Assembly: GCA_016124845.1 (NCBI GenBank)
Contig: WGMW01000003.1
Location: forward strand, 27,824-91,823
Source of the DNA: Flavobacteriales bacterium
GTDB lineage: Bacteria; Bacteroidota; Bacteroidia; UBA10329
DNA: 64,000 bases
Direction of reading: 5' to 3'
How positions within the stretch are numbered: the stretch's first letter is position 1; every line of letters begins with the position of its first letter. Below, in pieces: positions 15,408 through 54,078 of the stretch. The notes under the pieces are model-generated. The model saw nothing but the letters and a program-made list of their open reading frames with translations, did not search any database and was not told the origin of the DNA. The position numbers were made by a program, and so were the translations under genes.

Positions 15408-15417
15408 TGGTTGGAAT

Positions 15418-27026: not shown

Positions 27027-27089
27027 TCAGTTGACTGGGTTGACCAGTTGATCAGTTCGGATTTCCCTGAGTTTATTGTACACGTTTGC

Positions 27090-27151: not shown

Positions 27152-27305
27152 AGCGGCATGTGCGTTTGGGTAGGCTGAGCGGAGCCGAAGTCTACAGAGG
27201 TAGGCTTGGCTGTACCCTTCGATTGCCCTCAGGGTACGGCTGCTCGCACCACGTTTTACCTTTGTTGATTTTGCGGAAGACGCGTTTGCAAAATGCTGAG
27301 TGGGG

Positions 27306-27454: not shown

Positions 27455-27547
27455 TGAAAACCGCTTTTTGACAGTTGAGAATGGGTTTTCTTTCAGATTA
27501 TTGTTAAGTGCAAGAAATAATTTGGTAAGCCCGTTAAGAAACTAGAT

Positions 27548-30500
27548 GTGAGCTTTCAGAAGGAGGATATGACCTTTTGGAAAGAGGGTATGGGGTTTTG
27601 GAAGGTGCATATTAATTCATCTTATGTTCACTTTTCCCATAATAGTTTGCATATTGTCAAACCATTGATCTACAATACTTCACCGGCAATGAAAACCACA
27701 CTATTTCATATTCCGCCCATACGACTCACAGCGGCAGTGCTTGAAAAGAAATTGAAAGAAGAGATTGAAACAGAAAACAAGTTTCAAAATGGGGTTTGGT
27801 CAGTGCAAACGAAAGAACATGGATTGCTTGTGGACCTTTCCCAGTTACGTTGGGTTGAGTTCGGGGCTGCTGCTCAATTGTTGTTGTTAATTGAAAGTGC
27901 CTTAAAGCAAGATGTGTCTGTGGATATTGCAATGCCTCTGGATCAACCTTCTTCCGGTGAGAATAAGAAAATGTTAGAAATCCAAATTTCCAATCCAAGG
28001 GTTCATCGACAGATGCAAAATGTGGTTGGCCAACGTAGAGTTGCAAGGAACTTTCTGTATCACATACAGTTTGAACGAGCGGCTATGTGTTACCATGTTG
28101 AAACTGGGGATGTACGAATAATTCGAAAATGCGATTTCCGTTCTGGAAAACCACTGATTTATGATGAGCAAAACGTTCTTGAGCGCGCCAATGTTACGGA
28201 ATCTGATTTCGAATCGAAAAAGACTGATGAAATAAGCTATAAGGCAATTGTACCATTGACTTGGGTTCAAGAGTTGGAAGATAGTCTTGAGGTGAAGAAT
28301 CTAAAAGAGTTTTTGCACGACATTATCGGCAATGAGGAGAAAGGGTTGGCCAAAATTGATGCGCGCTCGATTACAGGTGTTGTGCTAAATGAGTTGGTGA
28401 AAAATTTGAAAGAGCATGCCAACCCATTAGGTGAGAGTTCAACTACCCATGCATTACTTGGGGTAATTCTATTGCCGAACTCAGTGATTGATGAGAACTC
28501 AGTTGGAAACAATGAAAGTTTTTTTAGCTGGCTAAAAGAGGGATATGACCATCATCTCGAGATTTATTTCGGAGATACTGGTCAAGGAGTTGTCAATTCT
28601 CTTAAGAAACAATTTGCCTTATCTGAACAGTCATCGACAATGACTGATGATAATATAGTTCTTTGGGCGTTTGATAAATGGTATAGTAGGAAATCAGAAA
28701 GATTTAGAGGGACTAAAGGATTGTACCGTATTCAGCGAATCGTGAATAAGTACGATGGGTTAATGTCGATTCGCTCTGCTAGGGTTGAAGCCGGTTATCA
28801 AAAAGGTGGATACGATGGCCCTGCGAGGAAGTTTTCCGCAAATGAGTTAGGGTACATGCCGGGTTCTTTCATCAAAATGACCATGGTGCCTTATAGGGAA
28901 CTCGCTAAGGTCAATCCGCCTTTAACAACACCTACAGGAAAAACGCCAGGAGTGATAGTTGAGCGTGTTGAGATCACTGCCAATGATTTACGAGTAGATA
29001 ACTTTTTTGAAAAGCAACACATCGAGCTTGAAGATAGATTCAAGAGCATTAAGGATAGAACTGCGACCGTCTTTATTTTTTTGGATTTCAAACTTGAATC
29101 TATTCAACCAATTTCTGAGAAACTGGTGGAGGATATTCTCAATTCATTAACTCAGTTAAGGCATCCGAATCCATTGGTTGTTTATGGTTTTCCTGAGCAA
29201 TATGGATATGAGAAACTAGAAGGATGCACCGATTCCGTGAATGAGTACTTACGAAGAACATTGGTGGAAAGCGGTCTAAATTTCAACGAGGAAGATTCTA
29301 CAATTCAAGATCCTGAATCTTTCGATAGCGAATTCGAGAATATTGCAGATCCGATTCTGGTTTTAACCAAGGAGGGAGAGCATTCGTGGTGCGGCATCTA
29401 CCAAGATGAAATCATGGAACTTCTTAAGGTCCTTTCTTCCGAAGGAAAGGTGGAAGCTACGTCATACCTCTCTAATAAAGGGGGTAATGAAATTCTTGAA
29501 ATAAAGAAGTTTGTGAATAATGACCCGCTAGTTCATCAATATGCAAATGTGGATGGGAAGCTAATATGGGAACTGCTTTATGGTCTTAACGGTTTGATTA
29601 GATACTATGGAGACAAGTTGATTCAGGAACTTGAGAAACAAGTTTCAGAACAAAAAAAGGGCTATTGCGATATTAGTCCAAATCTGAGTTGGGTTAAGCG
29701 ATGGGTTAATATGGAAACCTTACTTGAATTTGAAGAAGATGGTTTCGGTATTGCTTTGACCTTGTTGTTCAAAAGTAGGCATGGAAATGCGCGTATAGAC
29801 TTGAAATCAATTAAAATTCTCGTTGATAATGAAGAGGCTAGAAAAATAGCGAAACCGTTCTGCAAATGGATGGGGATAGATGTTGATAAGATTGTTGTTC
29901 TAAGTGATGAAGTTGATAGAAGAATACCTCGAAGATCCCCCATTTTCAGCAGAGGGGATCAAGTGTTGATCTTAACAACTCTAATCTCCTCTTTTGAAAC
30001 GGTCAATCGCTTGGCGAAGACGGTGTACAGGGGACTTGCCCATCCGATTGCAATCCTCGGTTTAGTACAGCCCAAAACCCAAGGTTCAGTGAATATATGG
30101 GGACATGATGAACTTGAGATTCTGTCTTTGGCTGAATACGATTTATCTGTTACTCCAATGATGGAATCAATTAAGAGTGGAGTCAAGTTCATTGAGCCGT
30201 ATAGTTATGAATCGATAATAGCGAAGACAAAAGAGGCCTTGATATCAACGGACTTAGGGCATCGCAATCAAGATCTTGATGAGGTACTTGAAATGGTGGA
30301 GAAGGGAAGTGCATTGCATTTTAGTCATGTTGGTAAGAATGCAGGAAGACATTTCACTTTTTACCTAAGTGCAATTGATTTTCTAGCAAAAAATGATGAA
30401 GTCATTATGCAGCGTTACTATGATGAGATTGACAGTTGGGCCGAAAGTCAAGGGATAGAAGACTTTGAAATTTGGACACCAACACCGGTACTCAAGGTTA

Positions 30501-32701
30501 ATCACCTAGAACAAATCTCAAAGCACTTGGAGGAAAGATATCACAAGTATAGTGCTGAATTGGCGGTTTGTGTTGCAAGAAAAGTTATCAAGAGAAACAA
30601 CGTACTTGGGAACTGGGTGTTTTATAACGAGAAAATGCACCGTGGAAGTAAATCCGACAATGTCTTGATAATTGATTGGGGTAGTTTGAATGGAACCACG
30701 GTTCAGCAAATGGTCAATTTTGCTGCTTCGGAGGCAAAGACCAACATTAAGGTTTGCATCCTGTTCTCTCAATTATGGAAGCCTGAGCAAGAGATGCTTG
30801 AGAAAATTGTTCAGGTAAAGCGCAATCCTAGGGTTGAAAATATTCCAGTTGACATATTTACAAATAGCGTCAAAGTTGCTGAGTCGGAGTCGGTGGAAGA
30901 CCTTTCGTCAACCGTGTCGGTTAAATTCCTTTACAGGCTGCCATTGCGTTATTTTGAAATGGAGGAATGCCCGGTATGTGCCCAAATTGAAGCTTTAAAG
31001 CAGTTTGAGGTTCCCAATAAATTGATCAATGATTTTAATGTTTCCCGAAAGGAACGACTTCAAATACGAGATAGGACAACAGAGGTCAATCATAGACCAA
31101 GGGATTTTTACGGTGAGCAACTAACGGGGTCAATCATCTCTGAGATGATGAAGTTCAAGGTTTTGCTTGATGAAGCCTTGTTGTCAACAGAAAAGCGATT
31201 CTTGGTTGTGGAGCATCTAAGGAAACTGGAAGAAGGTTTCCAAGTGGGAAAAATTCAAGGCAATACGGTCGTCCAAGCCGTCATTTATTTTTTGTCGGTT
31301 GAAAAGATATGGATGCACCGCCCACCTTTGGAGTTTCGAATTGCGCGCGATTTAATTGCTCAAATCAGCTTAAAGATTGCTTTAGCTGAGTCTACTCCAA
31401 TGCAACAGCAACTAAAGACTCGATCAAATGTCGTCCGAATAAAGTTTGCTGCGGTAACCGTACTGCGTTCTGCGGATAAAGTTCTGTTTATTGAGAACTT
31501 GGGAGGTATTTTTAGAAGTGCTTTTATTGAAGAAAAGTTTTCCGAAGCAATCGTTCAGAATCTGTTTTATCACTTGCATTCTTTCATTACGCGAGATTAT
31601 CATTCCAGTCAAGAATACTATGATACAATCATCCAAGAGTTGAATGACATAAGGCTGATAGAGGGTATTTCAGATTCTATGCAAGATGCAACTCAATTTT
31701 TAGAACTTATAACCGAAAAACGAAAAACTGGACTTAGAATTCCTTTTGATTCTAAACTGGCGGTAGTTAAAAGTTTAATGGTGCAGAGAAAAAGGAACTT
31801 TGACAGAAAGTACAACCATTATGACATAATTGAACGCTACCGCGCACTTAGCCCAGCATATAGGGGGAAAATTGAGAATTTTATTCAAGGAGTAAACAAT
31901 GATCAGTCGTTTGTGACAACAGATTACTTCCAAAGTTGGTGTCAGAAATTGATGACCGACTGGAAATATGTTGCACAATACCTGAATGATGTGATCTTCG
32001 GTCACCTGGAAAAAATCAAAGACCTCTTTGATAGTAAGAGTTTTAATGTCTATTACATGTTTAGGAGGGATTTGGAAGAGGCAATGCGGCCTGGAGTTGT
32101 TATTGGAAGTAATGATGACTTTACAATTTTGGTCAAACTTATTCAGGATGAACCCAGTGTTTTATTAGAAAAAAATGTATTTGAAAAATACATTGGTCTC
32201 TTAGAAAGCATGTATGTAAATTATTTGAGGTTTGACAAGCGTCAGTTGGAGAACAACTCAGTCTTAAATACTATTTTGTCTCAATTGAATGTTGATTTGG
32301 TTGATAATGTCAATCACGCATTGGAATCATTCAAGGCAATATGTAAGACTGGGCTCGACTACAGTTTTAGTAGGGATGAAGCAACTATTTATCAGGCGTT
32401 TATTTTTGAACCCCTTCTAAAGAATCTGCTTCAACACATTTTCGAAGATAATATTCACGAAAAGGATGAAGATGAACAGTCGCAAACCCCACTTAGTGTT
32501 CAGGTTTCGCTTAAACAGATTGATAATTCATTTGAACTTCTGATTGAGAACTCGGTATCAGATCCAGAACAAAAGAACAACCTGATGGGTGGACTGTCTA
32601 AGTGGCGAGAACAAATATTGGATTTTGATGGAGAGTTGAAGTGGGGTTTTAATAAAGATAGGACCAAATTTTATCGACAGATTATTTTATTGAAATTTTA
32701 A
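27548..32701 (+). CDS. Giant multidomain protein of 1717 aa (1670 aa from the ATG at 27689). It has an N-terminal GHKL/histidine-kinase-like ATPase domain, two PRTase-like Rossmann domains and a long alpha-helical C-terminal region. No family assignment.
   Basis: GHKL N-box GVVLNELVKNLKEHANP, G1 box EIYFGDTGQGVV and G2 box GTKGLYRIQRIV, with canonical spacing. PRTase-like cores: GDQVLILTTLISSFETVNRLAKTV...IAILGLV, and SDNVLIIDWGSLNGTTVQQMVNFAASEAKTNIKVCILFS. The second aligns residue-for-residue with the HGPRT core [21 protein letters not shown]...VKVASLL. A single CPVC motif is present. GC is about 38%, against 50-55% in the flanks. Confidence 0.7.
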   Translation: MSFQKEDMTFWKEGMGFWKVHINSSYVHFSHNSLHIVKPLIYNTSPAMKTTLFHIPPIRLTAAVLEKKLKEEIETENKFQNGVWSVQTKEHGLLVDLSQLRWVEFGAAAQLLLLIESALKQDVSVDIAMPLDQPSSGENKKMLEIQISNPRVHRQMQNVVGQRRVARNFLYHIQFERAAMCYHVETGDVRIIRKCDFRSGKPLIYDEQNVLERANVTESDFESKKTDEISYKAIVPLTWVQELEDSLEVKNLKEFLHDIIGNEEKGLAKIDARSITGVVLNELVKNLKEHANPLGESSTTHALLGVILLPNSVIDENSVGNNESFFSWLKEGYDHHLEIYFGDTGQGVVNSLKKQFALSEQSSTMTDDNIVLWAFDKWYSRKSERFRGTKGLYRIQRIVNKYDGLMSIRSARVEAGYQKGGYDGPARKFSANELGYMPGSFIKMTMVPYRELAKVNPPLTTPTGKTPGVIVERVEITANDLRVDNFFEKQHIELEDRFKSIKDRTATVFIFLDFKLESIQPISEKLVEDILNSLTQLRHPNPLVVYGFPEQYGYEKLEGCTDSVNEYLRRTLVESGLNFNEEDSTIQDPESFDSEFENIADPILVLTKEGEHSWCGIYQDEIMELLKVLSSEGKVEATSYLSNKGGNEILEIKKFVNNDPLVHQYANVDGKLIWELLYGLNGLIRYYGDKLIQELEKQVSEQKKGYCDISPNLSWVKRWVNMETLLEFEEDGFGIALTLLFKSRHGNARIDLKSIKILVDNEEARKIAKPFCKWMGIDVDKIVVLSDEVDRRIPRRSPIFSRGDQVLILTTLISSFETVNRLAKTVYRGLAHPIAILGLVQPKTQGSVNIWGHDELEILSLAEYDLSVTPMMESIKSGVKFIEPYSYESIIAKTKEALISTDLGHRNQDLDEVLEMVEKGSALHFSHVGKNAGRHFTFYLSAIDFLAKNDEVIMQRYYDEIDSWAESQGIEDFEIWTPTPVLKVNHLEQISKHLEERYHKYSAELAVCVARKVIKRNNVLGNWVFYNEKMHRGSKSDNVLIIDWGSLNGTTVQQMVNFAASEAKTNIKVCILFSQLWKPEQEMLEKIVQVKRNPRVENIPVDIFTNSVKVAESESVEDLSSTVSVKFLYRLPLRYFEMEECPVCAQIEALKQFEVPNKLINDFNVSRKERLQIRDRTTEVNHRPRDFYGEQLTGSIISEMMKFKVLLDEALLSTEKRFLVVEHLRKLEEGFQVGKIQGNTVVQAVIYFLSVEKIWMHRPPLEFRIARDLIAQISLKIALAESTPMQQQLKTRSNVVRIKFAAVTVLRSADKVLFIENLGGIFRSAFIEEKFSEAIVQNLFYHLHSFITRDYHSSQEYYDTIIQELNDIRLIEGISDSMQDATQFLELITEKRKTGLRIPFDSKLAVVKSLMVQRKRNFDRKYNHYDIIERYRALSPAYRGKIENFIQGVNNDQSFVTTDYFQSWCQKLMTDWKYVAQYLNDVIFGHLEKIKDLFDSKSFNVYYMFRRDLEEAMRPGVVIGSNDDFTILVKLIQDEPSVLLEKNVFEKYIGLLESMYVNYLRFDKRQLENNSVLNTILSQLNVDLVDNVNHALESFKAICKTGLDYSFSRDEATIYQAFIFEPLLKNLLQHIFEDNIHEKDEDEQSQTPLSVQVSLKQIDNSFELLIENSVSDPEQKNNLMGGLSKWREQILDFDGELKWGFNKDRTKFYRQIILLKF
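27635..27655 (+). promoter_or_regulatory. Candidate Bacteroidetes-type -7 promoter element upstream of the giant ORF.
   Basis: ATAATAGTTTGCATATTG is about 35 bp upstream of the ATG at 27689 and loosely resembles the TAnnTTTG -7 consensus. This is weak evidence. Confidence 0.2.
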
Positions 32702-32705
32702 GTCC

Positions 32706-34355
32706 ATGGATTCATTTGCAATATATTTTTTTGACGATGTAAAGGCTGATCAAAGGCTCATCAAGGATTATATAGAACCATTGTTTGATGGTTTTTCTCC
32801 CTCGAGAACTGTTAGTCCAAAGATAGAGGCGGATATTGAGAAGTTTGAATCAGCATTGTTGGAAGCCCAGAGGATTGACTTGGTCATATTGGATATTATA
32901 GAGAAGCAGGTGGATGCCAAAGGCGATGTAAAACTTGAAAAAGCTGGATTGAAACTCCTAAACAAGCCATTGATAACGGAGAAACTTCGAAGCTTAAATA
33001 CACCTGTTCTAATTTATTCATCAGATGATGATAGTATTCTCGCAGCAAGACAAATAGCTCAAGACCAAGGGATTAAAGTTGGTGAACTTCGCAAGGAATT
33101 TAGTGCAAAAACAGGAGCATTTCAAACTGTAAGAAAGGCAATTGAGGGTATAGTAGATTTTGGTGAACTGTTAGGCAGGTATAAAATAATTTTGACTCCC
33201 AACTTAAGGACACTATCATTGAATGATAGCGTTGGAGAGTCAGTGATTTCAAGTATTCTGGCGAAGTATTCAAGTTTTAGTTCGACCATTCCTGAAAATG
33301 GAAGTATAACTATTAAAGCTCTTACCCCAGGTTGGTCTGGTGCTTATATCTTCTTGGCAGATTTTGGGGCATCAAAACATGTTCTGTTCAAATTGTCGAA
33401 CGATTTACAGGAACTTGGAAAAGAGTTTAAGAATGTTGAGGACTATTATGAACCTCTTAGGTCAAAAACAACGGTCAAAGTTGGCAAAGTATCTCCGAGT
33501 AAACTTCAGTACAAAGGTTGGTCTGCTCTTTCATTTGAATTTGCCTCCGAAACAAATTCCTGTTTTAATTGGTTACAGACCAATCCTACTGATACTAAGG
33601 TTAAGAAAAACCTTAGGACGATTTTTTCTGACACCTGTTTAATGGGACTTTATAAAGTTACTGGAGAGTCAGAGTTGGATTGTAAAAGTACCTTGGATTT
33701 AGTACTGCTAGGACTTTCAAGAAACAAGAAGTTGCAAGTCAAAGCAAGCATAGAAGAGTTACATGGGGTTTTGCTTAACTATAACGCAGATTACGAAAAT
33801 TCATTGCTGCCGCTTGTTTCAATCATCAAGGAAAATGGGTCTTTTGACATGTTGGCTAATGAGCATATGGATCCAGGATTTAAAGCTCAAATATGCCACG
33901 GTGACCTTCATGCTAACAATTTATTGATAGATGCTAATGATGATCCGATTCTTATCGATGCGGGAAGCATAGGTTACGGTCATTCAACCTCAGATGTATG
34001 TCTTTTGATGGTTGATTTATTAATTAGGGGTATTGATCATGGTAAATTGGCGTATTTTGACCTAACGGCTATAGGAGAACATTTTAAATTGTTGGAAAAA
34101 GTTATTGACCAGAAAAAAATCGATTCAAACACAGATTCCAATAAAGGAATCTGTAGAGCGATAAATTACCTAAACCTGAACGTCAATAACTTGGTGGAAA
34201 TTCCCTTTGAACCTTGGGAGTTTTCATTGAACTTGGCGGTTGAATTTGCGAAAGCGGCATGTCGGAACACTTTTCCACCAAGTAAAAGAGTTGTGGCGCT
34301 TTTGGCAGCTGCAAGGGCAATTGAGGAGGCAAATAGTCGATTTAAATCACCTTAG
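32706..34355 (+). CDS. Receiver (REC)-like domain fused to an APH/protein-kinase-like kinase.
   Basis: N-terminal AIYFFDDVKAD...IDLVILDII...TPVLIYSSDDD...ELRK shows the acidic pocket, phospho-acceptor Asp, Ser/Thr and Lys in the order expected for CheY-like receivers. The C-terminal half has a Gly-rich loop LTPGWSGAYIFLADFG and VLFKL Lys. The Brenner catalytic motif is ICHGDLHANNLLID. ILIDAGSIGYG is the DFG equivalent. Confidence 0.65.
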   Translation: MDSFAIYFFDDVKADQRLIKDYIEPLFDGFSPSRTVSPKIEADIEKFESALLEAQRIDLVILDIIEKQVDAKGDVKLEKAGLKLLNKPLITEKLRSLNTPVLIYSSDDDSILAARQIAQDQGIKVGELRKEFSAKTGAFQTVRKAIEGIVDFGELLGRYKIILTPNLRTLSLNDSVGESVISSILAKYSSFSSTIPENGSITIKALTPGWSGAYIFLADFGASKHVLFKLSNDLQELGKEFKNVEDYYEPLRSKTTVKVGKVSPSKLQYKGWSALSFEFASETNSCFNWLQTNPTDTKVKKNLRTIFSDTCLMGLYKVTGESELDCKSTLDLVLLGLSRNKKLQVKASIEELHGVLLNYNADYENSLLPLVSIIKENGSFDMLANEHMDPGFKAQICHGDLHANNLLIDANDDPILIDAGSIGYGHSTSDVCLLMVDLLIRGIDHGKLAYFDLTAIGEHFKLLEKVIDQKKIDSNTDSNKGICRAINYLNLNVNNLVEIPFEPWEFSLNLAVEFAKAACRNTFPPSKRVVALLAAARAIEEANSRFKSP

Positions 34356-34391
34356 CAATAAGGCGTTTGGTAAATAAATGAGAGAAAAAAT

Positions 34392-35321
34392 ATGATGGAA
34401 AATTTTGCTGACCGACTAATACGTTCAGTTGAACGTAAAGCTACTCCGTGTATAGTTGGGCTGGACCCCCGTTTAGAACTCATTCCAGATTTTATTCTTA
34501 CAAATGCTCAGAAAGGGTCGCTGAATGAGGCTATAGCTTCAGCAATCACCACATTTCATACAATCATATTAGACTCAATCCAAGACCTTGTTCCTTGTGT
34601 AAAACCTCAAATTGCCTTCTATGAGCAATATGGCCTACCGGGGATGATTGCATTTGAGAACACAGTTAAGGCTGCAAAGGAGCGAGGACTTCTTGTGATT
34701 GTGGATGCCAAAAGAAATGACATTGGTTCAACCGCAACTGCTTATGCAAATGCGTTTCTTGGTGCCTCGGTTGTGTTTGGAGAGCGTAAACCAATGTTTG
34801 ATGTTGATGCTGTGACGGTAAATGGATACATGGGTGAGGAAACTTTGGTGCCGTTTGTAAATGTTTGCAAGGATTATGGAAAGGGAATTTTTGTCCTTGT
34901 CAAAACATCAAACCCTGGTTCAGGTGATGTTCAGGACCAAATCTTGGAGGAGTCGAAGCTTCCGCTTTATGTAAAGATGGCACGAACGGTTAATAGGTTA
35001 GGAATGGATATGGTCGGTAAAAACGGTTACAGTTCGGTAGGAGCGGTCGTAGGGGCAACTTATTCGGAAGCAGCAAAAGAATTGCGCGCTGAAATGTACA
35101 ACAACGTTTTTTTAGTGCCAGGCTATGGAGCACAAGGAGCCTCTGGAAAGGATGTCGTACATAATTTCAATTCAGATGGTCTGGGAGCCTTAATAAATGC
35201 ATCTCGAAGTATCACTTTTGCTGGTTATGATAAGGATGTTTCGATGATAGAATTTGAAAGTATTATTCGCCAGAATACGGAGGATATGGTGGTAGATGTT
35301 CGAAATAGTTTGAATAGTTAG
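34392..35321 (+). CDS. Orotidine-5'-phosphate decarboxylase, type 2 (PyrF family-2 architecture).
   Basis: PCIVGLDP. VIVDAKRNDIGSTA matches the DxKxxDIxxT signature. VTVNGYMG, VLVKTSNPGSGDVQ, GAVVGAT and LVPGYGAQG are all type-2 OMPDC hallmarks. Confidence 0.7.
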   Translation: MMENFADRLIRSVERKATPCIVGLDPRLELIPDFILTNAQKGSLNEAIASAITTFHTIILDSIQDLVPCVKPQIAFYEQYGLPGMIAFENTVKAAKERGLLVIVDAKRNDIGSTATAYANAFLGASVVFGERKPMFDVDAVTVNGYMGEETLVPFVNVCKDYGKGIFVLVKTSNPGSGDVQDQILEESKLPLYVKMARTVNRLGMDMVGKNGYSSVGAVVGATYSEAAKELRAEMYNNVFLVPGYGAQGASGKDVVHNFNSDGLGALINASRSITFAGYDKDVSMIEFESIIRQNTEDMVVDVRNSLNS

Positions 35322-35327
35322 TCTGAG

Positions 35328-35981
35328 ATGTCGATTAGGTCGATTGTTCCGAAGACAAGGATTGTTTTAGCGTTAGACTGTGAAACTGAGGAGGAATGTG
35401 TTCGAGTTTTAAACAGTTGCTACGAACAAATAGATTTAATCAAAGTTAATTACCCTCTTATTTTATCTGAAGGTCTCCCAATTATTGGCAGGCTTAAGAA
35501 AGTATTTGGCAAGCCAATTATTGCAGATTTCAAAGTTGCTGATGCACCAGTAACGAATAATCGAATCGTGAAATTGGTCAAAGATGCTGGTGCTGATTCA
35601 ATAATGGTTCATGCTATAGTAGGTACTGATGCGATTTATGAAATAAAGCAAATTGGAGGTGGCGAATTGGAAATAATAGTGGTAACGGAATTAACTCATC
35701 CTGGAGGTCTGGAGTTTACAAGAAAGTACGCAGAGGAGGCGGCAAAACTTGCATTGGAGATGGGGTGTTTGGGAATTCAAGCTCCTGGTACTCGGCCGGA
35801 ACAAATTGAAAAACTCAGGCAAATTGTAGGTCAGGACATGATTATCGTGGCTTGTGGTGTAGGAGCGCAGGGGGGACAGTATTCCGAAGTTATTAAAGCT
35901 GGAGCTGATTACGCTATCATTGGAAGGGCGATTTATGAATCAAGTAATCCGTCCTTAGCCATTGAATCTATTATTACTTGA
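35328..35981 (+). CDS. OMP-decarboxylase-superfamily TIM-barrel protein, HPS/KGPDC/type-1-OMPDC-like.
   Basis: RIVLALDCETEEE is the ALD start. PIIADFKVADAPVT matches DxKxxD. SIMVHAIVG. IIGRAIYES is the GR-I phosphate loop. Confidence 0.6.
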   Translation: MSIRSIVPKTRIVLALDCETEEECVRVLNSCYEQIDLIKVNYPLILSEGLPIIGRLKKVFGKPIIADFKVADAPVTNNRIVKLVKDAGADSIMVHAIVGTDAIYEIKQIGGGELEIIVVTELTHPGGLEFTRKYAEEAAKLALEMGCLGIQAPGTRPEQIEKLRQIVGQDMIIVACGVGAQGGQYSEVIKAGADYAIIGRAIYESSNPSLAIESIIT

Positions 35982-36139
35982 GTTTGAAGGTGGTTGCCCA
36001 AGGTCTGGTATTTCCTTAAAGTACCATAAGTTTCTGAGGGTCTTTGGCTTTTGAAGAGGCTTCCCGGCTCGCGCGAGTGTTCCGAAGGGTCACTCGTGTG
36101 GAGGTAAATACAATCAGTTTCCAAACTGATCTTCAAAGA

Positions 36140-36380
36140 TTAAATAAGATCGCCACTGCCTCCGCTTCCCGTTAGCGTTTGCAACGCGTGCTTTCTTACC
36201 TGAAAACCGCCATCAGTCCTAACCGTCTGATAACCAGCGTTCTCAGTCCACTCCCGATCTATCTCCGTCTTCTCCCGATCATTCTCGGTCGAGTCCCGAT
36301 CATTCTCGGTCGAGTCCCGATCTATCTCGGTCAAGCCCCGATCTATCTCGGTCAAGCCCACGATCTATCTCAGTCTTGCC
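36140..36380. repeat. Left copy of a large inverted repeat. It has about 110 bp of unique sequence plus an array of six 21-bp tandem repeats (CCCGATCWWTCTCGGTCRAGY).
   Basis: Six tandem units at 36253-36380. 36205-36252 is homologous in reverse complement to 53997-54040. ORFs 36140..36361 (-) and 36179..36481 (+) are 7-aa-periodic translations of the array. Confidence 0.7.
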
Positions 36381-36589
36381 CCAAAAATCTACCCTTAAAG
36401 CACCGATCAACCTCTGTTCAGTCCCGGGTATTCACCAAAGGGCAACAACTCATATCAGTTTTAATTAAAAGATGCCAGTAGAACCGCGGCCTTCCCTCTT
36501 GGCTGGTCAGCCTATCATAATCTGAGCCCCCAAAAGAACACGCAAATCCACGTATCCCCGAACTTCCGAACCTTACTAAATTCGCGCCC

Positions 36590-37456
36590 ATGAGCGAATG
36601 GAGCGGAAAGAGTAGAGGAAACGCCTTAGGTTACTGGTTCTTCATCTTCTTTATGAAGCATCTGGGCCTTGGGTTCACCTACGGTTTCCTGCATTTTGTG
36701 GTGCTGTATTTCTTCCTGTTCTCGTGGAGCAGCAGCAAATGGATCTACCGCTACTACCGCGATGGCCTGCGCTATGGCGTACTGAAAAGCATTGCGGGCA
36801 TTTACCGCACCTACTACGTGTTCGGGCAGGTAATTATAGACAAGGTGGCCATGGCATCGGGCATCAAAGACCGCTTTAACCTAACGCACAACGGGGCCGA
36901 GCACATCCGCAACATGGTAGAGAACCAGACGGGCGGCATTCTTATTTCGGGCCACATGGGCAATTGGGAAATAGCCAGCCACCTGATGCGCGGCTATGGC
37001 GGCAAGGTGAACGTGGTGATGTACGATGAGGAGCACCAGCAGATAAAGAAGCAGATGGACGGCACCACGGGCGGCCGCAAGTTCAACGTAATACCCATTA
37101 AGGACGATATTTCGCACGTATTCCTCATCAGTAAAGCCCTGCTGAACAAGGAATTGGTGTGCATACACGGAGACCGCTTCCGCGAAGGCATGCGTACTCT
37201 CAAAGAGGATTTTCTGGGCAAGGAAGCGCAGTTTCCTTACGGTCCGTTTGCCATTGCCGCCAAGTTCGATGTGCCCAAGGTTTTCGTGTACGGCTTTAAG
37301 ACCGGAACGTACGATTACAGCTTCTACTGCACGCAACCCATAGAGGGCAAATTGAAGCCCGAACTTTTACTCACAAAGTATGTTGATGAAATGGCCCACA
37401 TGGTGCGGAAATACCCGAACCAGTGGTTCAATTTTTACGACTTTTGGAAGCCTTAA
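36590..37456 (+). CDS. Lysophospholipid / lipid A-type acyltransferase (LpxL/HtrB-like).
   Basis: N-terminal transmembrane helix. The HxxxxD-type motif GHMGNWE is present. A typical pigment-cluster acyltransferase. Confidence 0.65.
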   Translation: MSEWSGKSRGNALGYWFFIFFMKHLGLGFTYGFLHFVVLYFFLFSWSSSKWIYRYYRDGLRYGVLKSIAGIYRTYYVFGQVIIDKVAMASGIKDRFNLTHNGAEHIRNMVENQTGGILISGHMGNWEIASHLMRGYGGKVNVVMYDEEHQQIKKQMDGTTGGRKFNVIPIKDDISHVFLISKALLNKELVCIHGDRFREGMRTLKEDFLGKEAQFPYGPFAIAAKFDVPKVFVYGFKTGTYDYSFYCTQPIEGKLKPELLLTKYVDEMAHMVRKYPNQWFNFYDFWKP

Positions 37457-37464
37457 CATGAGTT

Positions 37465-37568
37465 AGCCACAGATTCACGGATTAGCACTGATTTTTCACA
37501 GAATATATTCGCAAAGCGAAAAGAAAACAATCTGTGTTTTTTCTGTGAAAATCTGAGCATCTGTGGCT
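37465..37568. repeat. Palindromic family element.
   Basis: AGCCACAGATTCACGGATTAGCAC...GTGAAAATCTGAGCATCTGTGGCT. Confidence 0.7.
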
Positions 37569-37584
37569 CTTACATGTTTTTTGA

Positions 37585-38004
37585 ATGAAAGAATTAACCA
37601 ACAGCACAACTTTCCGAGTACGGTTCAGCGAAGTGGACAGCCTGCGCATAGTATGGCATGGCAATTTTCTGAAGTATTTTGAAGATGGGAGAGACGCTTG
37701 GGCCAAGCAGTACGATTTCGATTTTACCGATGTGTACGAGCAGCACGGGCTGCTGATGCCATTGGCGTCATCGCACATGGATTACAAGTATCCGTTGCGG
37801 TACAACGAGATCGGGCTGGTGGAAACAACCTTTGTCAATTCGCCTGCGGCCAAGATGATCTTCCGCTTTAAGGTGTACAACGAGGATAGAACGCAGCTGA
37901 AGGCAACAGGCGAAACGGTGCAGGTTTTCATGGACACGGACCACGTGTTGCAACTGAACACACCACCGTTCTTCGAAGAGTGGAAACAAAGGCATGGTTT
38001 GTAA
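37585..38004 (+). CDS. Hotdog-fold acyl-CoA/ACP thioesterase (4HBT/YbgC-like).
   Basis: RVRFSEVDSLRIVWHGNFLKYFEDGRDAW is the hotdog thioesterase N-terminal signature. Confidence 0.7.
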   Translation: MKELTNSTTFRVRFSEVDSLRIVWHGNFLKYFEDGRDAWAKQYDFDFTDVYEQHGLLMPLASSHMDYKYPLRYNEIGLVETTFVNSPAAKMIFRFKVYNEDRTQLKATGETVQVFMDTDHVLQLNTPPFFEEWKQRHGL

Positions 38005-39955: not shown

Positions 39956-40558
39956 TTGAGTTTGAGCCTGAAAACATATTGCCGCATCAAGGACAACGAG
40001 GTTCACATCAATGGCGAACTCTTCTGTCAGCACATGGACGAGGAACCATTCCTACGGTCGGTTTACAAGCACATCGGGCTCAGTTACCCGAAGTTCTTCA
40101 AGATGGATGCGCTTTCGCAACTTGGTTTCCTTGGTGCCGAAATGACGCTGATGCGTTCCGAATTGGAAACGTATGCCGATGATGAAGTGGCGGTGGTGTA
40201 TTCCAACCGTTCCTCCAGTTTGGAAACAGACCATGCGTACTACAACTCGCTGAAGGAAAGCGGCATTGCCAGTCCTGCGCTGTTCGTGTACACGCTTCCG
40301 AACATTGAAGTGGGCGAGATATGCATCCGCCACAAGTTGTATGGCGAGAACAACTTCCTAATCACCGAGCGGTTTGATGCTGCGCAACTCTTGGAGCAAT
40401 GCGAGGCGCTGTTCGCGGATAATGCCGCCAAGGCCGTGCTCATTGGCTGGACCGAAGTGAATGGAGAGGAACACGATGGTTTCTTCGCGTTCATCACCAA
40501 CTCAGGAGTTGACGAATTGACAGCGGAACATTTGACAGATTTGTATTTAGACAGATGA
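39956..40558 (+). CDS. KAS-related protein lacking the catalytic Cys, chain-length-factor-like.
   Basis: ALFVYTLPNIEVGEICIRHKLYGENNFL resembles the region around the KAS active site, but has no Cys. Confidence 0.45.
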   Translation: MSLSLKTYCRIKDNEVHINGELFCQHMDEEPFLRSVYKHIGLSYPKFFKMDALSQLGFLGAEMTLMRSELETYADDEVAVVYSNRSSSLETDHAYYNSLKESGIASPALFVYTLPNIEVGEICIRHKLYGENNFLITERFDAAQLLEQCEALFADNAAKAVLIGWTEVNGEEHDGFFAFITNSGVDELTAEHLTDLYLDR

Positions 40559-40567
40559 ACATGATAA

Positions 40568-40649
40568 AGCCACAGAAACACAGATTTACACAGAATGAAA
40601 AAGGAATTTTTTCTGTGAAAACCTCAGTGTCTTCAGTGCCTCTGTGGCT
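40568..40649. repeat. Palindromic family element.
   Basis: AGCCACAGAAACACAGATTTACACAGAA...TTCTGTGAAAACCTCAGTGTCTTCAGTGCCTCTGTGGCT. Confidence 0.75.
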
Positions 40650-40664
40650 AACTTATGTGAATGA

Positions 40665-41858
40665 ATGATGGAGATTGCTGTCACAGGCATAGGAGCGATT
40701 TCGGCCATCGGCAACGATGTGCAGGAAAACTTGGCTTCGCTTTTAGCGAAGAAAACAGGCGTTGGTAAAACCGAACTGCTCAGATCCAAGCTCACAGAAA
40801 CACATCTTTTAGGAGAAGTGAAGTTGAGCAACGACCAACTGAAAGCAGGCCTGAACTGGAAAGGCGATGCTGTTTCCAGAACCACGCTTCTGAGTTCTTG
40901 GGCCATGAAAGAGGCCATCGAGCAATCGGGTTTTGAGATGGACAACCATGTTGGGTTGGTGTCATCGACCTCGGTAGGCGGCATGGACAGAAGCGAGGGC
41001 TTCTTCGAGCCTTACTACCTCGAACAGGACTTTTCGAATGTGTTCCTACTCGGAACGCACGATTGCGGCACCTGTACCAAACAGGCCGCAGCGCATTTCG
41101 GCATTACAGGATATGCAACAACCATAAGCACGGCCTGTTCTTCTGCCGCCAATGCCATTGCAATGGGCGCACGCTTGCTACGTCAAGGCAAGTTGAAGCG
41201 CGTCATCGTGGGCGGAACAGATGCCTTGTGCCGATTTACGGCCAATGGCTTCAACTCGTTGATGATCTTGGACACGGAATGGTGCAAGCCGTTCTCTGCC
41301 AATCGCGCTGGATTGAACTTGGGAGAAGCTGCGGCTTATCTCGTGCTGGAAAGCAAGGAAGAGGCGGAAGCACGTGGCGCGAAGATCCACGGTCTGGTAA
41401 CAGGTTGGGCCAATACGAACGATGCGTACCATCAAACGGCTTCATCACCTGATGGAAATGGGGCGTTCATGGCCATGTCGCAAGCGTTGGAGAAAGCAGG
41501 TTTGAAGTCGACAGACATCGGCTACATCAACGCCCACGGTACTGGCACACAGAATAACGACCAGTCGGAAAGTATTGCCATCCACCGAGTTTTTGGGGCG
41601 CAGAAACCGCCTATCAGTTCTACCAAAGCTTATACAGGTCATACGTTGGCTGCGGCTGGAGCCATTGAGGCGGTGTATTCGCTATTGGCGTTGAAGGAGC
41701 AAAAGTTCCTTCCCAATTTGAACTATCAGGACCCGATTGAGGACAACGATTGGAAACCGCAGTTGGAAGTGGAGAGTGGTGAGATTAATCATGTGCTTTC
41801 CAACTCATTCGGGTTTGGCGGTAATAATTCAACGGTGATTTTTAGTAGGTACAGTTGA
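40665..41858 (+). CDS. Beta-ketoacyl-ACP synthase II-like.
   Basis: ISTACSSAANAI is the active Cys. NAHGTGTQNND and TGHTLAAAGAIE follow. GFGGNNS is at the C-terminus. Confidence 0.8.
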   Translation: MMEIAVTGIGAISAIGNDVQENLASLLAKKTGVGKTELLRSKLTETHLLGEVKLSNDQLKAGLNWKGDAVSRTTLLSSWAMKEAIEQSGFEMDNHVGLVSSTSVGGMDRSEGFFEPYYLEQDFSNVFLLGTHDCGTCTKQAAAHFGITGYATTISTACSSAANAIAMGARLLRQGKLKRVIVGGTDALCRFTANGFNSLMILDTEWCKPFSANRAGLNLGEAAAYLVLESKEEAEARGAKIHGLVTGWANTNDAYHQTASSPDGNGAFMAMSQALEKAGLKSTDIGYINAHGTGTQNNDQSESIAIHRVFGAQKPPISSTKAYTGHTLAAAGAIEAVYSLLALKEQKFLPNLNYQDPIEDNDWKPQLEVESGEINHVLSNSFGFGGNNSTVIFSRYS

Positions 41859-41875
41859 CATGATTGAGCCACAGA

Positions 41876-41958
41876 TGCACAGATTTACACAGAAATTTCA
41901 CAGAGATTTATTTTCTCCGTGTATCTCAAATACTCCAGTTTTCTCTGTGCAATCACCA
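41876..41958. repeat. Palindromic family element with a degenerate right arm.
   Basis: AGCCACAGATGCACAGATTTACACAGAAATTTCACAGAG...TTTTCTCTGTGCAATCACC. Confidence 0.6.
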
Positions 41959-42044
41959 TGCGTTAAGGTAGGTTCGCATATTATTTCACTTCGTTCAATG
42001 AGAACGCTTCGCTTAGTTCGTACTCCATTCGTAATTAGTAACCC

Positions 42045-43031
42045 GTGTATTTAGGAGCCGCCAGTTGCATAACGTATCAGGACACGTTTGGAGGTGAAAA
42101 ACCTTGGAGCGCGTTGGTGGAAGCAAATGTGGAAAGCCAACTCATTCAGCCTGACTACAAGGAATTTGTAAGCCCTGCGATGCTGCGTAGAATGAGCAGC
42201 GCGCTGAAAATGGGCGTGGCAGGAGGGAAGTCGTGCTTGCAGAAATCAGGTTTGGAAACCTGTGATGCCATTACGGTAGGTACAGGACTTGGCTGTGTGA
42301 GAGACACCCTGCGCTTTATGAAAGTGATGTACGAGGAAGCTGAGACAGGACTTTCCCCGACCTCGTTCATTCAGTCAACACACAATTCTATTGCTGGGCA
42401 GATTGCGTTGCTGCTGGGAAATCATGGTTACAACATGACGCATGTGCAAGGCGGGTTGTCGTTGGGCTATGCGCTCTCCGATGCTGAACTGCTTATTGGA
42501 GAAGGTGATGCCGAAACGGTGCTTGTCGGTGCGGTGGATGAGAAAACAGATGAGTTGGTTGAACTGCTTACCAAGCTTGCTGCCACCTCCAACTACGAGT
42601 TGCCAGCCATTGGAGAAGGTGGAGCATTCTTCTTGGCATCCAAAGAGAAGTTGGGTTCTTCCGTTGCGAAAGTGGTGGAGTTGAGTTTGGTAAATGACCC
42701 CTCCGTCCGCCTGAGGCGGACACCTCCCCTTTCAAGGGGAGGAACTGGCGCGCTGATCCAAGGTCAGAGCGAAGAGCAACTCCCCTCCTTGGAAGGAGGG
42801 GGTGGGGGAGGTCAGATTGACCTCCTCCTTTCAAACACAGGCGAAGGCTTTAATTACGTGAAGTATTCTGGAGAGCATTTCACTTCTGCTGGTTTTGGGT
42901 TGTTTATGGCATTGAAAGCATTTGAAGCTGGTACAGTAAACTTTAATGGCTCTTCCGTTGAACCAAAAAGCATTCTTGTCCGCCACAGTCTGTTCGGACA
43001 GGAGTTCAGTATTCTATTAGAGAAGGTTTGA
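42045..43031 (+). CDS. KAS-like protein without the catalytic Cys, carrying an in-frame repeat-element insertion.
   Basis: KAS-like N-terminal region (TSFIQSTHNSIAGQIALLLGNHGYNMT). An odd Gly/Pro/Arg-rich insert reads VNDPSVRLRRTPPLSRGGTGALIQGQSEEQLPSLEGGGGGGQIDL. Confidence 0.55.
   Translation: MYLGAASCITYQDTFGGEKPWSALVEANVESQLIQPDYKEFVSPAMLRRMSSALKMGVAGGKSCLQKSGLETCDAITVGTGLGCVRDTLRFMKVMYEEAETGLSPTSFIQSTHNSIAGQIALLLGNHGYNMTHVQGGLSLGYALSDAELLIGEGDAETVLVGAVDEKTDELVELLTKLAATSNYELPAIGEGGAFFLASKEKLGSSVAKVVELSLVNDPSVRLRRTPPLSRGGTGALIQGQSEEQLPSLEGGGGGGQIDLLLSNTGEGFNYVKYSGEHFTSAGFGLFMALKAFEAGTVNFNGSSVEPKSILVRHSLFGQEFSILLEKV
42690..42835. repeat. GC-rich palindromic element inserted in frame. It belongs to the same family as 690-860.
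   Basis: Shares the hairpin TCCGCCTGAGGCGGAC with the 7291-7325 repeat. CCTCCCCTTTCAAGGGGAGG and GGGGGAGGTCAGATTGACCTCCTCC match the IcmF insert. Confidence 0.55.
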
Positions 43032-43657
43032 AGGACGCAGACATTATCGAGTTTGATTATCAGGAACGATTAAATGCCGTTCTCGATCAATCTTGGAAAA
43101 TATTCAAGTCGCAGTTCATTCATGGAAGGCATGAAATAAACAAGGAAGCACCTTTTCAGCACCATTTTGCTCAGATCATCAGAAGTGTTGGGAATCTCTA
43201 TTCTCTTGGAGAAAAAGATCTTTTCAAAGTTGACCTCGAAGCCAAATGTTCTGATGTAAAAGGAAAATCAAAGTATTTGGATATTACCTGTGAGTTTGTC
43301 GATCACATTAGCTGTGCGATTGAACTGAAATTCAAAACAGCAAAGCAAGGAGCTCAAGATTATGGAAGAATTGACGCTTACGTTGATATTGAGGCACTTG
43401 AATTAGTGACGGCTTCTCAGTACGATAGTGGAAAATTCTACATGATTACTGATAGCAGAGCTTATGTGAATGCTTCTGAAAAAGGCGTTGGAACTGAGTT
43501 TGCCATGCATAGTGGAAACAAAACTGAGGCTGGAACATACTTCAACTATCCGAAGTGTAAGGGTAGAGAAGATGTGCGTGTGTTTTTGAATAAATCTTAT
43601 CTCTTTGAATGGGAGAAGATCGGTAACTGGTATTTCTTAGAATTGACCGTCCATTGA
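43028..43657 (+). CDS. Hypothetical protein of 209 aa, possibly a PD-(D/E)xK nuclease. GC is low.
   Basis: YLDITCEFVDHISCAIELKFK gives D...E...ELK spacing compatible with PD-(D/E)xK. GC is about 38%. It overlaps its neighbours by 4 bp on each side. Confidence 0.35.
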   Translation: MKDADIIEFDYQERLNAVLDQSWKIFKSQFIHGRHEINKEAPFQHHFAQIIRSVGNLYSLGEKDLFKVDLEAKCSDVKGKSKYLDITCEFVDHISCAIELKFKTAKQGAQDYGRIDAYVDIEALELVTASQYDSGKFYMITDSRAYVNASEKGVGTEFAMHSGNKTEAGTYFNYPKCKGREDVRVFLNKSYLFEWEKIGNWYFLELTVH

Positions 43658-45563: not shown

Positions 45564-45584
45564 TCGAGTTTTAACACCTTTGCG

Positions 45585-45644
45585 GTCATGCTGAACTCGT
45601 TTCAGCATCTAATCAATAGACCCTGAAACAAGTTCAGGGTGACG
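45585..45644. repeat. Two-hairpin element in inverted orientation relative to 27090-27151.
   Basis: GGTCATGCTGAACTCGTTTCAGCATCTAATCAATAGACCCTGAAACAAGTTCAGGGTGACG. Confidence 0.75.
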
Positions 45645-45655
45645 AATCGGAAAGA

Positions 45656-51718: not shown

Positions 51719-51731
51719 AACGACATTTTAT

Positions 51732-51810
51732 AGCCACAGAAACACAGATTTCCACTGAATAAATGAAATCCTTCAGCGAAAACCTCTGTGCCTTCTGTGT
51801 TTCTGTGGCT
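51732..51810. repeat. Palindromic family element.
   Basis: AGCCACAGAAACACAGATTTCCACTG...AAACCTCTGTGCCTTCTGTGTTTCTGTGGCT. Confidence 0.75.
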
Positions 51811-51853
51811 ATCTAATTTGAATACATTCACTCCGATAAATAACTCTATCTCC

Positions 51854-53771: not shown

Positions 53772-53912
53772 GCTGTAAGACTGCGGTTCCGCGAGTTTGT
53801 CTTTCTATTTACCGAAATGATTTGTTGCTTTTTTGAGAAAGGCCGTTGCTTGACCGTGGATGTGTGTGCTCGGACCGATGGTGATCGATGCTTGTCTGGT
53901 AGATTTTTGTGG

Positions 53913-54040
53913 TAAGACCGAGAATGATCGGGGCTTGACCGAGATAGATCGGGAGAAGACGGAGATAGATCGGGACTCGACCGAGAATGATCGGGAATGG
54001 ACTGATGATGTTGGTTATCAGGTGGTTACGGTTTGTGTCG
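53913..54040. repeat. Right copy of the large inverted repeat. It has four inverted copies of the 21-bp unit plus about 45 bp of adjoining sequence.
   Basis: GACCGAGAATGATCGGG and GACCGAGATAGATCGGG are reverse complements of the 36253-36380 units. 53997-54040 matches the reverse complement of 36205-36252. Confidence 0.7.
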
Positions 54041-54078
54041 GGTTTTAGGTCGGTCATTGGCCGATCATACGTATTTCG

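Follow-up and report, generated by a model that had tools for sequence, protein, structure and literature searches.

Triplex-type repeats (Holder et al. 2015, PMC4666352) and in-frame palindromic repeats (Di Nocera et al. 2013, PMC3733652) are both already known from bacteria. Class II G/C-rich triplex motifs have been described from Proteobacteria, Escherichia coli among them (Holder et al. 2015, PMC4666352; Hoyne et al. 2000), and the BoxC/PIT/TMECO repeat of E. coli has the consensus CCCTCNCCC-N3-6-GGGNGAGGG-N3-GGGNGAGGG, with 9-nt arms (Holder et al. 2015, PMC4666352). The 23 TMECO copies in strain MG1655 are "always located intergenically", often form inverted pairs in which two subtypes are always combined, have no associated transposase, and are linked to small deletions and strain-to-strain variability (PMC4666352). 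Intragenic, in-frame repetitive extragenic palindromic sequences (REPs) and Rickettsia palindromic elements (RPEs) are known as well, including cases in PolA and DNA ligase (Di Nocera et al. 2013, PMC3733652). The locus described here lies in a 64,000-nt stretch from Flavobacteriales bacterium (assembly GCA_016124845.1, contig WGMW01000003.1, positions 27,824-91,823, forward strand; hereafter the window), where the gene for a chain-length factor (CLF)-like ketosynthase partner carries, at 42686-42818 (plus strand), what is probably a lineage-specific, in-frame composite insertion. Textbook cases of in-frame selfish repeats come from Rickettsia only (RPEs, reportedly described by Ogata and colleagues in 2000), with a few REP cases elsewhere, and triplex-type repeats (BoxC/PIT) have hitherto been treated as intergenic curiosities of Enterobacteria and Cyanobacteria. 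In the window both phenomena meet: a three-armed unit stands in Bacteroidota coding sequence, and exact copies of it occur in at least 120 loci across many phyla.

The host gene (42045-43031, plus strand) encodes 328 amino acids and is assigned from Pfam matches, orthologue names, synteny and fold. A sequence-only reading of the window had called it ketoacyl synthase (KAS)-like, and this is upheld: PF13723 and PF00109 match weakly over the first half of the open reading frame (ORF), the predicted protein model has a ketosynthase fold whose matches include the solved CLF chains 1tqy_B and 6kxf_B, and the orthologues, which come from Flavobacteriales metagenome-assembled genomes, are named "beta-ketoacyl synthase chain length factor" by their sources. 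BLASTN alignment to the empty-site locus L002 ends at 42685 and restarts at 42819. Where the empty allele has 28 nt, the window has 133 (residues ~215-258), so that the gene is longer by a net 105 nt (35 codons) and not by the roughly 46 amino acids given by the sequence-only reading. The claim that this is a true insertion is borne out by the orthologue alignment, in which the closest orthologues lack it and others are variable. Most of the CLF orthologues listed are 293-294 amino acids long and have no insert. P0007, P0008 and P0010, which are empty-site alleles, share 90-91% identity with the query in the alignment and read …ELSMTDAINAE(A/T)DLVLSN…, where the window counterpart is …ELSLVNDPSVRLRRTPPLSRGGTGALIQGQSEEQLPSLEGGGGGGQIDLLLSN… (a predicted peptide across the CLF insert is, for example, GGTGALIQGQSEEQLPSLEGGGGGGQIDLLLSNTGEGFNYVK). 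P0026 retains only the right-hand part, six orthologues (P0028, P0031, P0034, P0044, P0047 and P0058) have decayed versions, and P0009 and P0053 have a longer, divergent version. When the insert columns are excluded, filled, partial and empty alleles are interleaved in the orthologue tree, and the window's nearest neighbour is an empty allele. No orthologue was found to carry the same insert on DNA free of palindromes, nor was the element confined elsewhere to intergenic DNA. In the AlphaFold model, residues 219-256 have confidence scores (pLDDT) below 50 and no secondary structure, and lie between strands 206-216 and 260-263; the segment is modelled as a disordered loop at a tolerated location.

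The insert is a composite of two inverted ~28-nt units, a spacer with a hairpin, a nested mini-hairpin and a hairpin that recruits host codons. A 166-nt region folds as five consecutive hairpins (RNA z = -4.2, DNA z = -4.6; none of 200 shuffles was as good), and the hairpin sequences quoted by the sequence-only reading all lie where it placed them. The general unit (~28-33 nt) has a C-rich pyrimidine arm, a short loop and a complementary purine arm; after a linker, 3 nt in most cases, comes the third arm, again of purines, which mirrors the second and is not its complement, as in CCTCCCC-loop-GGGGAGG-TCA-GGAGGGG. The left unit (42698-42742, minus strand, class II) is CCTCCCC(TT)-GA-(AA)GGGGAGG followed by an 18-nt linker and an exact mirror arm, GGAGGGG; on the plus strand it reads CCCCTCC-(hairpin 1)-A-CCTCCCC-TTTCAA-GGGGAGG. 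Hairpin 1 (42705-42721, plus strand) is a mini-hairpin, GTCCGCC-TGA-GGCGGAC, nested in the linker of this unit, and hairpin 2 (42723-42742, plus strand; CCTCCCC-TTTCAA-GGGGAGG) is part of the unit itself. A unique 39-nt spacer (42743-42781, plus strand) contains hairpin 3 (42751-42771, plus strand; CGCT-GATC-CAA-GGTC-AG-AGCG). The right unit (42782-42813, plus strand, class II) is of the complementary subtype, CCCCTCC-TTGGAA-GGAGGGG-GTG-GGGGAGG-TC, and includes hairpin 4 (42782-42801, plus strand; CCCCTCC-TTGGAA-GGAGGGG). Its third arm pairs with host codons to form hairpin 5 (42804-42828, plus strand; GGGGGAGGTCA-GAT-TGACCTCCTCC), whose stem reaches 11 bp in this genome only, where three substitutions within four bases have turned host CTTGTG into CTCCTC (Val to Leu, DLVLSN to DLLLSN). 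A CTTGTG-type sequence is retained by the empty allele and by each of the other seven filled orthologues. Clustered substitutions of this kind are the expected signature of a template-switch event. The placement of the two subtypes head to head, as in E. coli, avoids one long perfect palindrome.

Local BLAST, run on the window and on ~80 kb from close relatives, found the spacer nowhere but in the CLF orthologues, and a scan of a metagenome collection for its exact 19-mer CCAAGGTCAGAGCGAAGAG, which misses diverged copies, gave 14 unrelated chance matches. Since the spacer has no other copy, the composite is not a dispersed element as a whole. The sequence-only reading had proposed a mobile element; what stands is that the repeated DNA occurs in frame in IcmF, in many genes and in intergenic DNA, and what falls is the notion that its 146-bp stretch is a single element.

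The mini-hairpins look like a second, separate layer. The sequence-only reading also had the insert share its palindrome with an intergenic repeat at 7291-7325, and the 17-mer of hairpin 1, TCCGCCTGAGGCGGACA, does recur exactly at 7301-7317 (plus strand; BLAST E = 5e-4; the observed count was reached in none of 100 shuffles), inside the loop of another, unrelated hairpin repeat between genes (AGATGCTGAA…CAGCATGAC). However, this mini-hairpin stands apart from the unit in whose linker it sits, and it gives way to five other hairpins in the orthologues. Mini-hairpins nested in linkers between purine arm and mirror arm have common TGTC…GAC ends, and one stem, GTCACGC/GCGTGAC, occurs both in the CLF gene of L004 and in an intergenic unit of L005; long hairpin-containing linkers are also found in Caulobacterales and Planctomycetaceae copies. 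Families of CGTC-REPs have stems of 8-9 bp that start with A-T pairs, loops of 4-5 nt and a CCA tail. The tetranucleotide CGTC can be read at hairpin 1 (with the preceding C) in three of its six variants, and CGTC-REP identity was considered and rejected, the stems being 4-7 bp and GC, the loops mostly 3 nt and the CCA tail absent.

Four further units were found in the window. Two lie in frame in the IcmF gene (minus strand of 1-1290): site 1 at 829-856 on the plus strand, so that the gene reads its antisense strand (CCTCCCC-TTT-GGGGAGG-TCA-GGAGGGG-T), and site 2 at 684-711 on the minus strand (CCTCCCC-CTC-GGGGAGG-TCA-GGAGGGG-T). The motif CCTCCCC-NNN-GGGGAGG-TCA-GGAGGGG thus occurs twice in IcmF, in agreement with the motif sharing reported by the sequence-only reading. 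A unit of the second subtype, TCCCCC-TTT-GGGGGA-TCG-AGGGGG (59074-59097, minus strand), makes up most of the final ten codons (…NPLDPPKGEAD*) in the ORF of a GNAT acetyltransferase (58631-59107), whose Pfam GNAT domain stops at residue 145 of 158. The fourth (25068-25107, plus strand) is intergenic and of the TCCCCC/GGGGGA subtype, with CCCCCTTT-AC-AAAGGGGG, a 16-nt linker holding an imperfect TGTC…GAC hairpin, and then GGGGGA. Homopyrimidine/homopurine GC hairpins occupy six sites in the window versus ~0.4 expected from shuffles. Five of the six (829, 684, 42782, 42698 and 59074) are followed by an exact mirror third arm, the sixth (25068) having its arm after the 16-nt linker, and five of the six units lie inside ORFs. 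The enrichment is limited to this class; GC hairpins in general, counted as another candidate signal, were not in excess (16 versus 10.5 in shuffles).

Both IcmF sites fall in the linker that joins the B12 and G-protein domains. Site 1 is of nearly the same length as in orthologues (counterpart PTGMNLNGE), where P(T/S)P·LPKG variants are common to many Flavobacteriales; site 2 is ~6 amino acids longer than in most orthologues and holds different unit-like sequences by lineage (IPPPQGELEGA, ISPLRGVGGA, SPKGKLDGA). The idea of two independent in-frame insertions, in CLF and in IcmF, is broadly right, but the IcmF sites behave as recurrent, evolving hot spots and not as single clean events. Alignment of IcmF to PDB structures was uninformative as an insertion test, the linker being variable, and close orthologues were used instead. 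A perfect hairpin, TCGAAGGTT-TC-AACCTTCGA (805-824), stands beside the site-1 unit; it encodes …VRRLKPSS… and is absent from the 91%-identical IcmF orthologue in L142.

Eight filled CLF orthologues were compared at the DNA level, and all eight inserts fold with z between -3.3 and -6.4. The position of hairpin 1 is occupied by a hairpin in every filled orthologue, with six different stems; those replacing the window's are GGCC-TTC-GGCC, GGCC-TTG-GGCC, GTCACGC-CCAAAA-GCGTGAC, GTCCCG-AAAAAAAT-CGGGAC, GTCCC-TTC-GGGAC and GACCC-TTC-GGGTC. The GTCCC/GGGAC stem of L005 and the GACCC/GGGTC stem of L145 differ by a two-sided swap. The peptides encoded there (SVRLRRT, SGLRP, TVTPKSVT, FVPKKIGT, PVPSGH) are unrelated. 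The outer stem of hairpin 3, CGCT/AGCG, is CGTT/AACG in L146, L144 and L143, a compensatory change from C-G to T-A. In L005 and L145 all three arms are altered together in both CLF units, which are flipped relative to the window; in the right unit CCCCTCC/GGAGGGG/GGGGAGG has become CTCCCCC/GGGGGAG/GAGGGGG. IcmF site 2 changes in the same manner, from CCTCCCC/GGGGAGG/GGAGGGG in the window to CTCCCCC/GGGGGAG/GAGGGGG in the L142 orthologue (in full CTCCCCC-TCA-GGGGGAG-TTA-GAGGGGG). Such orthologous copies are natural triple covariation, with three arms shifting together, a type of evidence that could make a long-open question testable.

The 31 codons that follow hairpin 1 show no synonymous and five non-synonymous differences between the window and L001, and none and four between the window and L004, while the 5′ part of the host gene has 68 synonymous and 20 non-synonymous differences in 214 codons. 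At the host rate the binomial probability of seeing no synonymous difference is ~6e-6 (our arithmetic). Either the nucleotides are constrained, or the insert is far younger than the divergence of the host alleles and has been spread or renewed horizontally. Because stems and mirror arms covary and synonymous sites are frozen while amino acids drift, it is the nucleic-acid structure, and not the peptide, that is kept.

Copies in other genomes were sought by an exact scan of one genome per species (596 Gb) with the pattern CCTCCCCN{2,8}GGGGAGGTCAGGAGGGGT, whose 25 fixed bases would be expected by chance about 0.01 times (our arithmetic). At least 120 loci were found, with 132 copies among the matches listed. 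The hosts among these matches include Bacteroidota (Prevotella among them), Nitrospirota, Zixibacteria, Patescibacteria, Planctomycetota, Chloroflexota, Proteobacteria, Cyanobacteria and others, and the loci differ in their flanks and in G+C content (31-70%). The foreign copies often stand head to head with a unit of a different subtype. ORFs running at least 60 codons to both sides enclose 33 of the 132 listed copies (25%), in five different frames; Pfam-confirmed enclosing genes are PolA, LigA, a P-type ATPase, urocanase and a TonB-dependent receptor. By direct reading, five of the six frames across the unit are free of stops, and the closed one reads the linker as TGA. The sequence-only reading had called the element frame-preserving; survivorship is preferred because five of six frames lack stops and a quarter of the listed foreign copies lie in long ORFs. 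In a Prevotella locus (L027, 7880-7994) four copies of the unit stand head to tail with a 29-nt period, and the LigA gene of L090 and the TonB-dependent receptor gene of L033 hold several more unit-like inserts (PSPFRRGVEGE, SSPAKGRVGEGS, SPPDKGDLGG; repeated HLSPLTS).

A census of three-armed sequences was made in 888 kb of foreign loci with the seed matches left out. Pyrimidine/purine GC hairpins number ~255, versus 11 in shuffles, and asymmetric hairpins are followed within 25 nt by an exact mirror arm in 81 strand views and by a direct copy in 21, versus none of either in shuffles. Arms that obey the rule include CTCCCCC/GGGGGAG/GAGGGGG, CCCTCTC/GAGAGGG/GGGAGAG and TTCCCCC/GGGGGAA/AAGGGGG. 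The base that mirrors an A of the purine arm is A in 53 cases, T in 20, C in two and G in none. The class II purine-motif rule calls for G*GC and A*AT or T*AT triplets with an antiparallel third strand (PMC4666352), and the mirror arms follow this sequence rule for an intrastrand triplex of class II. A Shine-Dalgarno/anti-Shine-Dalgarno mimicry through GGAGG cores was also considered and rejected; two copies (L055, L093) lie just upstream of a start codon, but most do not. ACACCTCCCCTTTCAAGG bears some likeness to the 3′ end of 16S rRNA.

Compared with BoxC/PIT/TMECO, the unit has the same plan of C-rich arm, 3-6-nt loop, complementary G-rich arm, 3-nt second loop and mirroring third arm with A or T opposite A, and it likewise forms inverted pairs of two subtypes, has no associated transposase, and shows presence/absence differences and partial deletions between close relatives. 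It departs from the TMECO consensus in its 7-nt arms (CCTCCCC/GGGGAGG/GGAGGGG) and in sequence (CCCTCNCCC…GGGNGAGGG in TMECO), and from the intergenic habit of TMECO in that several of the present units are in frame inside genes. The Flavobacteriales host, the exact copies in many phyla and the GC hairpins nested in the second loop are further differences, and for the present unit a triplex is predicted from sequence. Like RPEs and intragenic REPs, the units are small palindromic repeats in frame in protein genes (PolA and DNA ligase included) and absent from orthologues, often occur as dimers encoding 20-30 amino acids or more, are apparently translated and tolerated in loops, and can be replaced by different repeats at one site in orthologues. 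Unlike those repeats, they have no sequence relation to them, no GTAG or CGTC tag, a third mirror arm, an unrepeated composite with a unique spacer, and another taxon as host. Small dispersed repeats (SDRs) of heterocyst-forming cyanobacteria, reportedly treated by Elhai and colleagues in Genome Res in 2008, are said to be hairpin-forming repeats of 21-27 nt that are nested in one another and in other repeats, undergo compensatory changes that preserve their structure and in some cases lie within conserved genes. They would be similarly tiny nested hairpin repeats, of other sequence and from another taxon, and are not known to have a mirror third arm. A literature search with the exact unit sequence gave no match, and the library searched gave no description of a triplex-type unit in coding sequence, of its exact recurrence across many phyla, of coordinated three-arm changes or of nested mini-hairpins.

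With moderate confidence, the insert is taken to be two inverted units of triplex-motif type with accreted hairpins that lie in a tolerant loop, are read through to give a disordered segment, and are kept up or renewed at the level of DNA. Units would arrive, be replaced and be partly deleted by a DNA-level process tied to non-B structure; candidate routes are replication stalling, template switching and recombination, possibly with a widespread host factor. Inside genes, a unit would survive only if it landed in a loop that tolerates it, had a length that keeps the frame and was read in one of the five frames without stops, and survivors would be translated as Pro/Gly/Ser/Arg-rich loops in the fashion of RPEs. 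Neither the window nor the fetched flanks showed a transposase encoded by the element. Structure-dependent spread by replication, repair or recombination is inferred over a dedicated transposase because none is found here or for BoxC and identical units occur across phyla.

Several points weigh against this account. That a triplex forms is suggested by the symmetry of the arms, and 7 nt is the arm length at which the authors of ITxF call chance matches common. For TMECO the triplex was seen in vitro, a proof limited to its 9-nt arms, and in vivo footprinting gave no support for a stable triplex (PMC4666352). The spacer is a part of the insert that is not repeat-derived. Low synonymous divergence could reflect recent recombinational spread of an allele and not structural constraint, and translation through the insert is deduced from the intact ORFs. 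No insertion event was caught directly and no terminal inverted repeats or target-site duplication are evident at the insert, so the patchy pattern of filled and empty alleles could come from one old gain with many deletions, or from allelic recombination. Finally, the source genome is covered by the 64-kb window, to which the copy number and the transposase search are confined.

[quoted passage not shown] The copies are dispersed and polymorphic among close relatives, and the inverted two-unit dimers resemble REPINs. An IS110-family transposase gene adjoins IcmF, immediately upstream of its start (minus strand, 1372-2402, in two ORFs with PF01548 at 1812-2402 and PF02371 at 1372-1791), and is the only transposase gene among the window ORFs scanned; IS110/IS1111 elements are known to target REP-like palindromes. 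There is also precedent for in-frame placement in the documented REPs and RPEs (PMC3733652). However, the composite has no second copy and its spacer is unique, the ends are mirror-related and not complementary, with neither terminal inverted repeats nor target-site duplication, the units have no GTAG or CGTC tag, and hairpin 1 fails the definition of the CGTC family. The presence of the exact unit in Patescibacteria and Nitrospirota is hard to square with a transposase that co-evolves with its ends, and no transposase has been found for BoxC/TMECO either. A MITE comprising the whole insert was rejected, as no such terminal repeats or duplication are evident and the local BLAST and exact 19-mer scan for the spacer gave no further full-length copy.

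We think it quite unlikely that no mobility is involved at all, so that hairpins and mirror arms arose in place by template switching, quasi-palindrome correction and G/C-tract slippage, with the likeness between copies and between phyla a convergence in a very small sequence space of C-runs with one T. The substitution cluster that extends hairpin 5 into host codons in the window only is in its favour, as are the nearly unchanged length at IcmF site 1, the hairpin 1 that differs in nearly every lineage, the unique spacer, and the tiny arm alphabet, which makes exact matches across phyla less improbable than they appear. It leaves the mirror third arm and the coordinated changes unexplained, since template switching yields complements and not mirrors. 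Moreover, de novo origin is a lot to ask of a 105-nt gain that puts two complete units at a single site, and the 25-28-nt identity, including the TCA linker and a flanking T, between two IcmF sites and 132 foreign copies exceeds what convergence in arm composition would give.

A functional structured nucleic acid under selection, such as an mRNA element that slows or tunes translation between the CLF halves, a transcript stabiliser or a small RNA of whalefall-1 type, is improbable. In its favour, eight orthologues keep five hairpins, with compensatory changes, the amino acids drift where synonymous sites stay frozen, and the top sub-threshold Rfam match of both units is whalefall-1 (RF01762), a motif of the same plan, known from metagenomes only, that was judged a real RNA and proposed to be free-standing and non-coding (Weinberg et al. 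2010, PMC2864571). The resemblance lies in its consensus UCUCUCC-loop-GGAGAGA hairpin, ~24 inserted nt and G-rich near-mirror tail AGGGUGAGG, which recall the left unit of the KAS-like gene. The scores, 19.7 bits at 42779-42813 for the right unit and 14.4 bits at 42696-42745 (minus strand) for the left, are well under the gathering score of 37, so the units are not members of the family; the insert is also coding. No Rfam family, self-splicing introns included, reached its gathering threshold in the window or in six foreign loci, and known RNA families were rejected as candidates, e-value mode giving only weak whalefall-1 and miscellaneous miRNA-like matches. Close relatives manage without the insert, and the units are met in both orientations relative to transcription and turn up between genes as well as within genes unrelated to each other. 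Since RNA does not form purine-motif triplexes (PMC4666352), the mirror arm of the right unit is left without an explanation at that level. Lastly, a selected CLF surface loop whose hairpin DNA is incidental would fit the ORF being intact in all variants and the loop being retained in several lineages, but it is almost certainly not the explanation, as the loop is modelled as disordered and is absent from the nearest relatives, all five insert changes between the window and L001 are non-synonymous, the hairpin 1 peptides are unrelated, and the same DNA units encode other peptides in other frames elsewhere.

A wider and more speculative proposal can be made, to which we attach only tentative weight. 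The three-armed unit may be one very widespread, essentially uncharacterised class of tiny structure-defined mobile DNA, present in intergenic DNA and in loops of essential genes (PolA, LigA, IcmF, CLF and others) in most bacterial phyla including Patescibacteria, and spread or renewed through some conserved process of the host in which an intrastrand triplex or hairpin is recognised. A second class, the GTC…GAC mini-hairpins, would land in the unit's linker, and BoxC/PIT and the whalefall-1 "RNA" would be local members. In metagenome-assembled genomes, inserts of this kind inflate and confuse gene calls, domain boundaries and the alignment of proteins.

The CLF ORF is preceded by a full ketosynthase gene (40665-41858) and followed by polysaccharide deacetylase and LolA-like genes, and synteny around it is kept in L001-L005. 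The orthologous neighbourhoods contain genes for an aromatic ammonia-lyase, ketoreductase, ketosynthase, acyl carrier protein, acyltransferase, thioesterase, ketosynthase/CLF, LolA-like and ApeI-like proteins and a glycosyltransferase; from established knowledge of such clusters, this is presumably a pigment cluster of the flexirubin/aryl-polyene type. The space between the CLF and deacetylase genes is filled exactly by a 209-codon ORF (43028-43657) that matches no Pfam or NCBIfam entry; stop and start codons overlap. A 209-codon ORF also occupies this junction in L146 (1323-1952), and there is none there in L001, L002, L004 or L005. Other small cassettes at cluster junctions are PIN/DUF2281 and HepT/MNT pairs in L001, DUF6602 in L002, and an HMA-domain gene in L001, L004 and L005. 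A low-G+C island of 9.5 kb (27010-36588; 36-41% versus ~49%) interrupts the cluster, and the genes that flank it are adjacent in L002. It contains a 1717-codon ORF (27548-32701) with no Pfam match, a 549-codon ORF with weak TCAD9/APH kinase-like matches, and two OMP-decarboxylase-family ORFs.

The window holds several other repeats. An abundant intergenic family, GCCACAGA(T/A)(G/A)CACAGATTT(T/A)CACAGA and its inverse, is found at 10000-10101, 13030-13145, 24163-24234, 25122-25520, 37445-37585, 40556-40653, 41843-42046 and 51723-51812, and its copies at 37450-37585, 40556-40653 and 41843-42046 stand between genes that in L002 overlap or directly adjoin. Paired hairpins, GTCACCCTGAACTTGTTTCAGGGTCT and AGATGCTGAAACAAGTTCAGCATGAC, make up a second intergenic family, at 7118-7325, 15411-15502, 18619-18709, 27072-27161 and 45576-45654; in the copy at 7291-7325 the loop is replaced by the mini-hairpin TCCGCCTGAGGCGGA. 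Tandem 21-nt repeats (…GACCGAGATAGATCGGG…, encoding TE(I/N)DR(D/E) heptads) occur at 36198-36417 and 53874-54050, in inverted orientation and ~17.5 kb apart, and bracket the downstream part of the pigment cluster; a 7-amino-acid insert, LP(K/N)DRDR, near the N-terminus of the CLF orthologues P0013, P0023, P0044, P0047 and P0058 looks like one unit of this repeat. A 17-nt tandem repeat, GAGATAGAGTTGACGRA, with at least nine copies (60719-60936), begins in the last ~50 nt of a dihydroorotate dehydrogenase ORF (59699-60772) and runs past its end, and single motifs related to it lie at 24129, 25025 and 27030.

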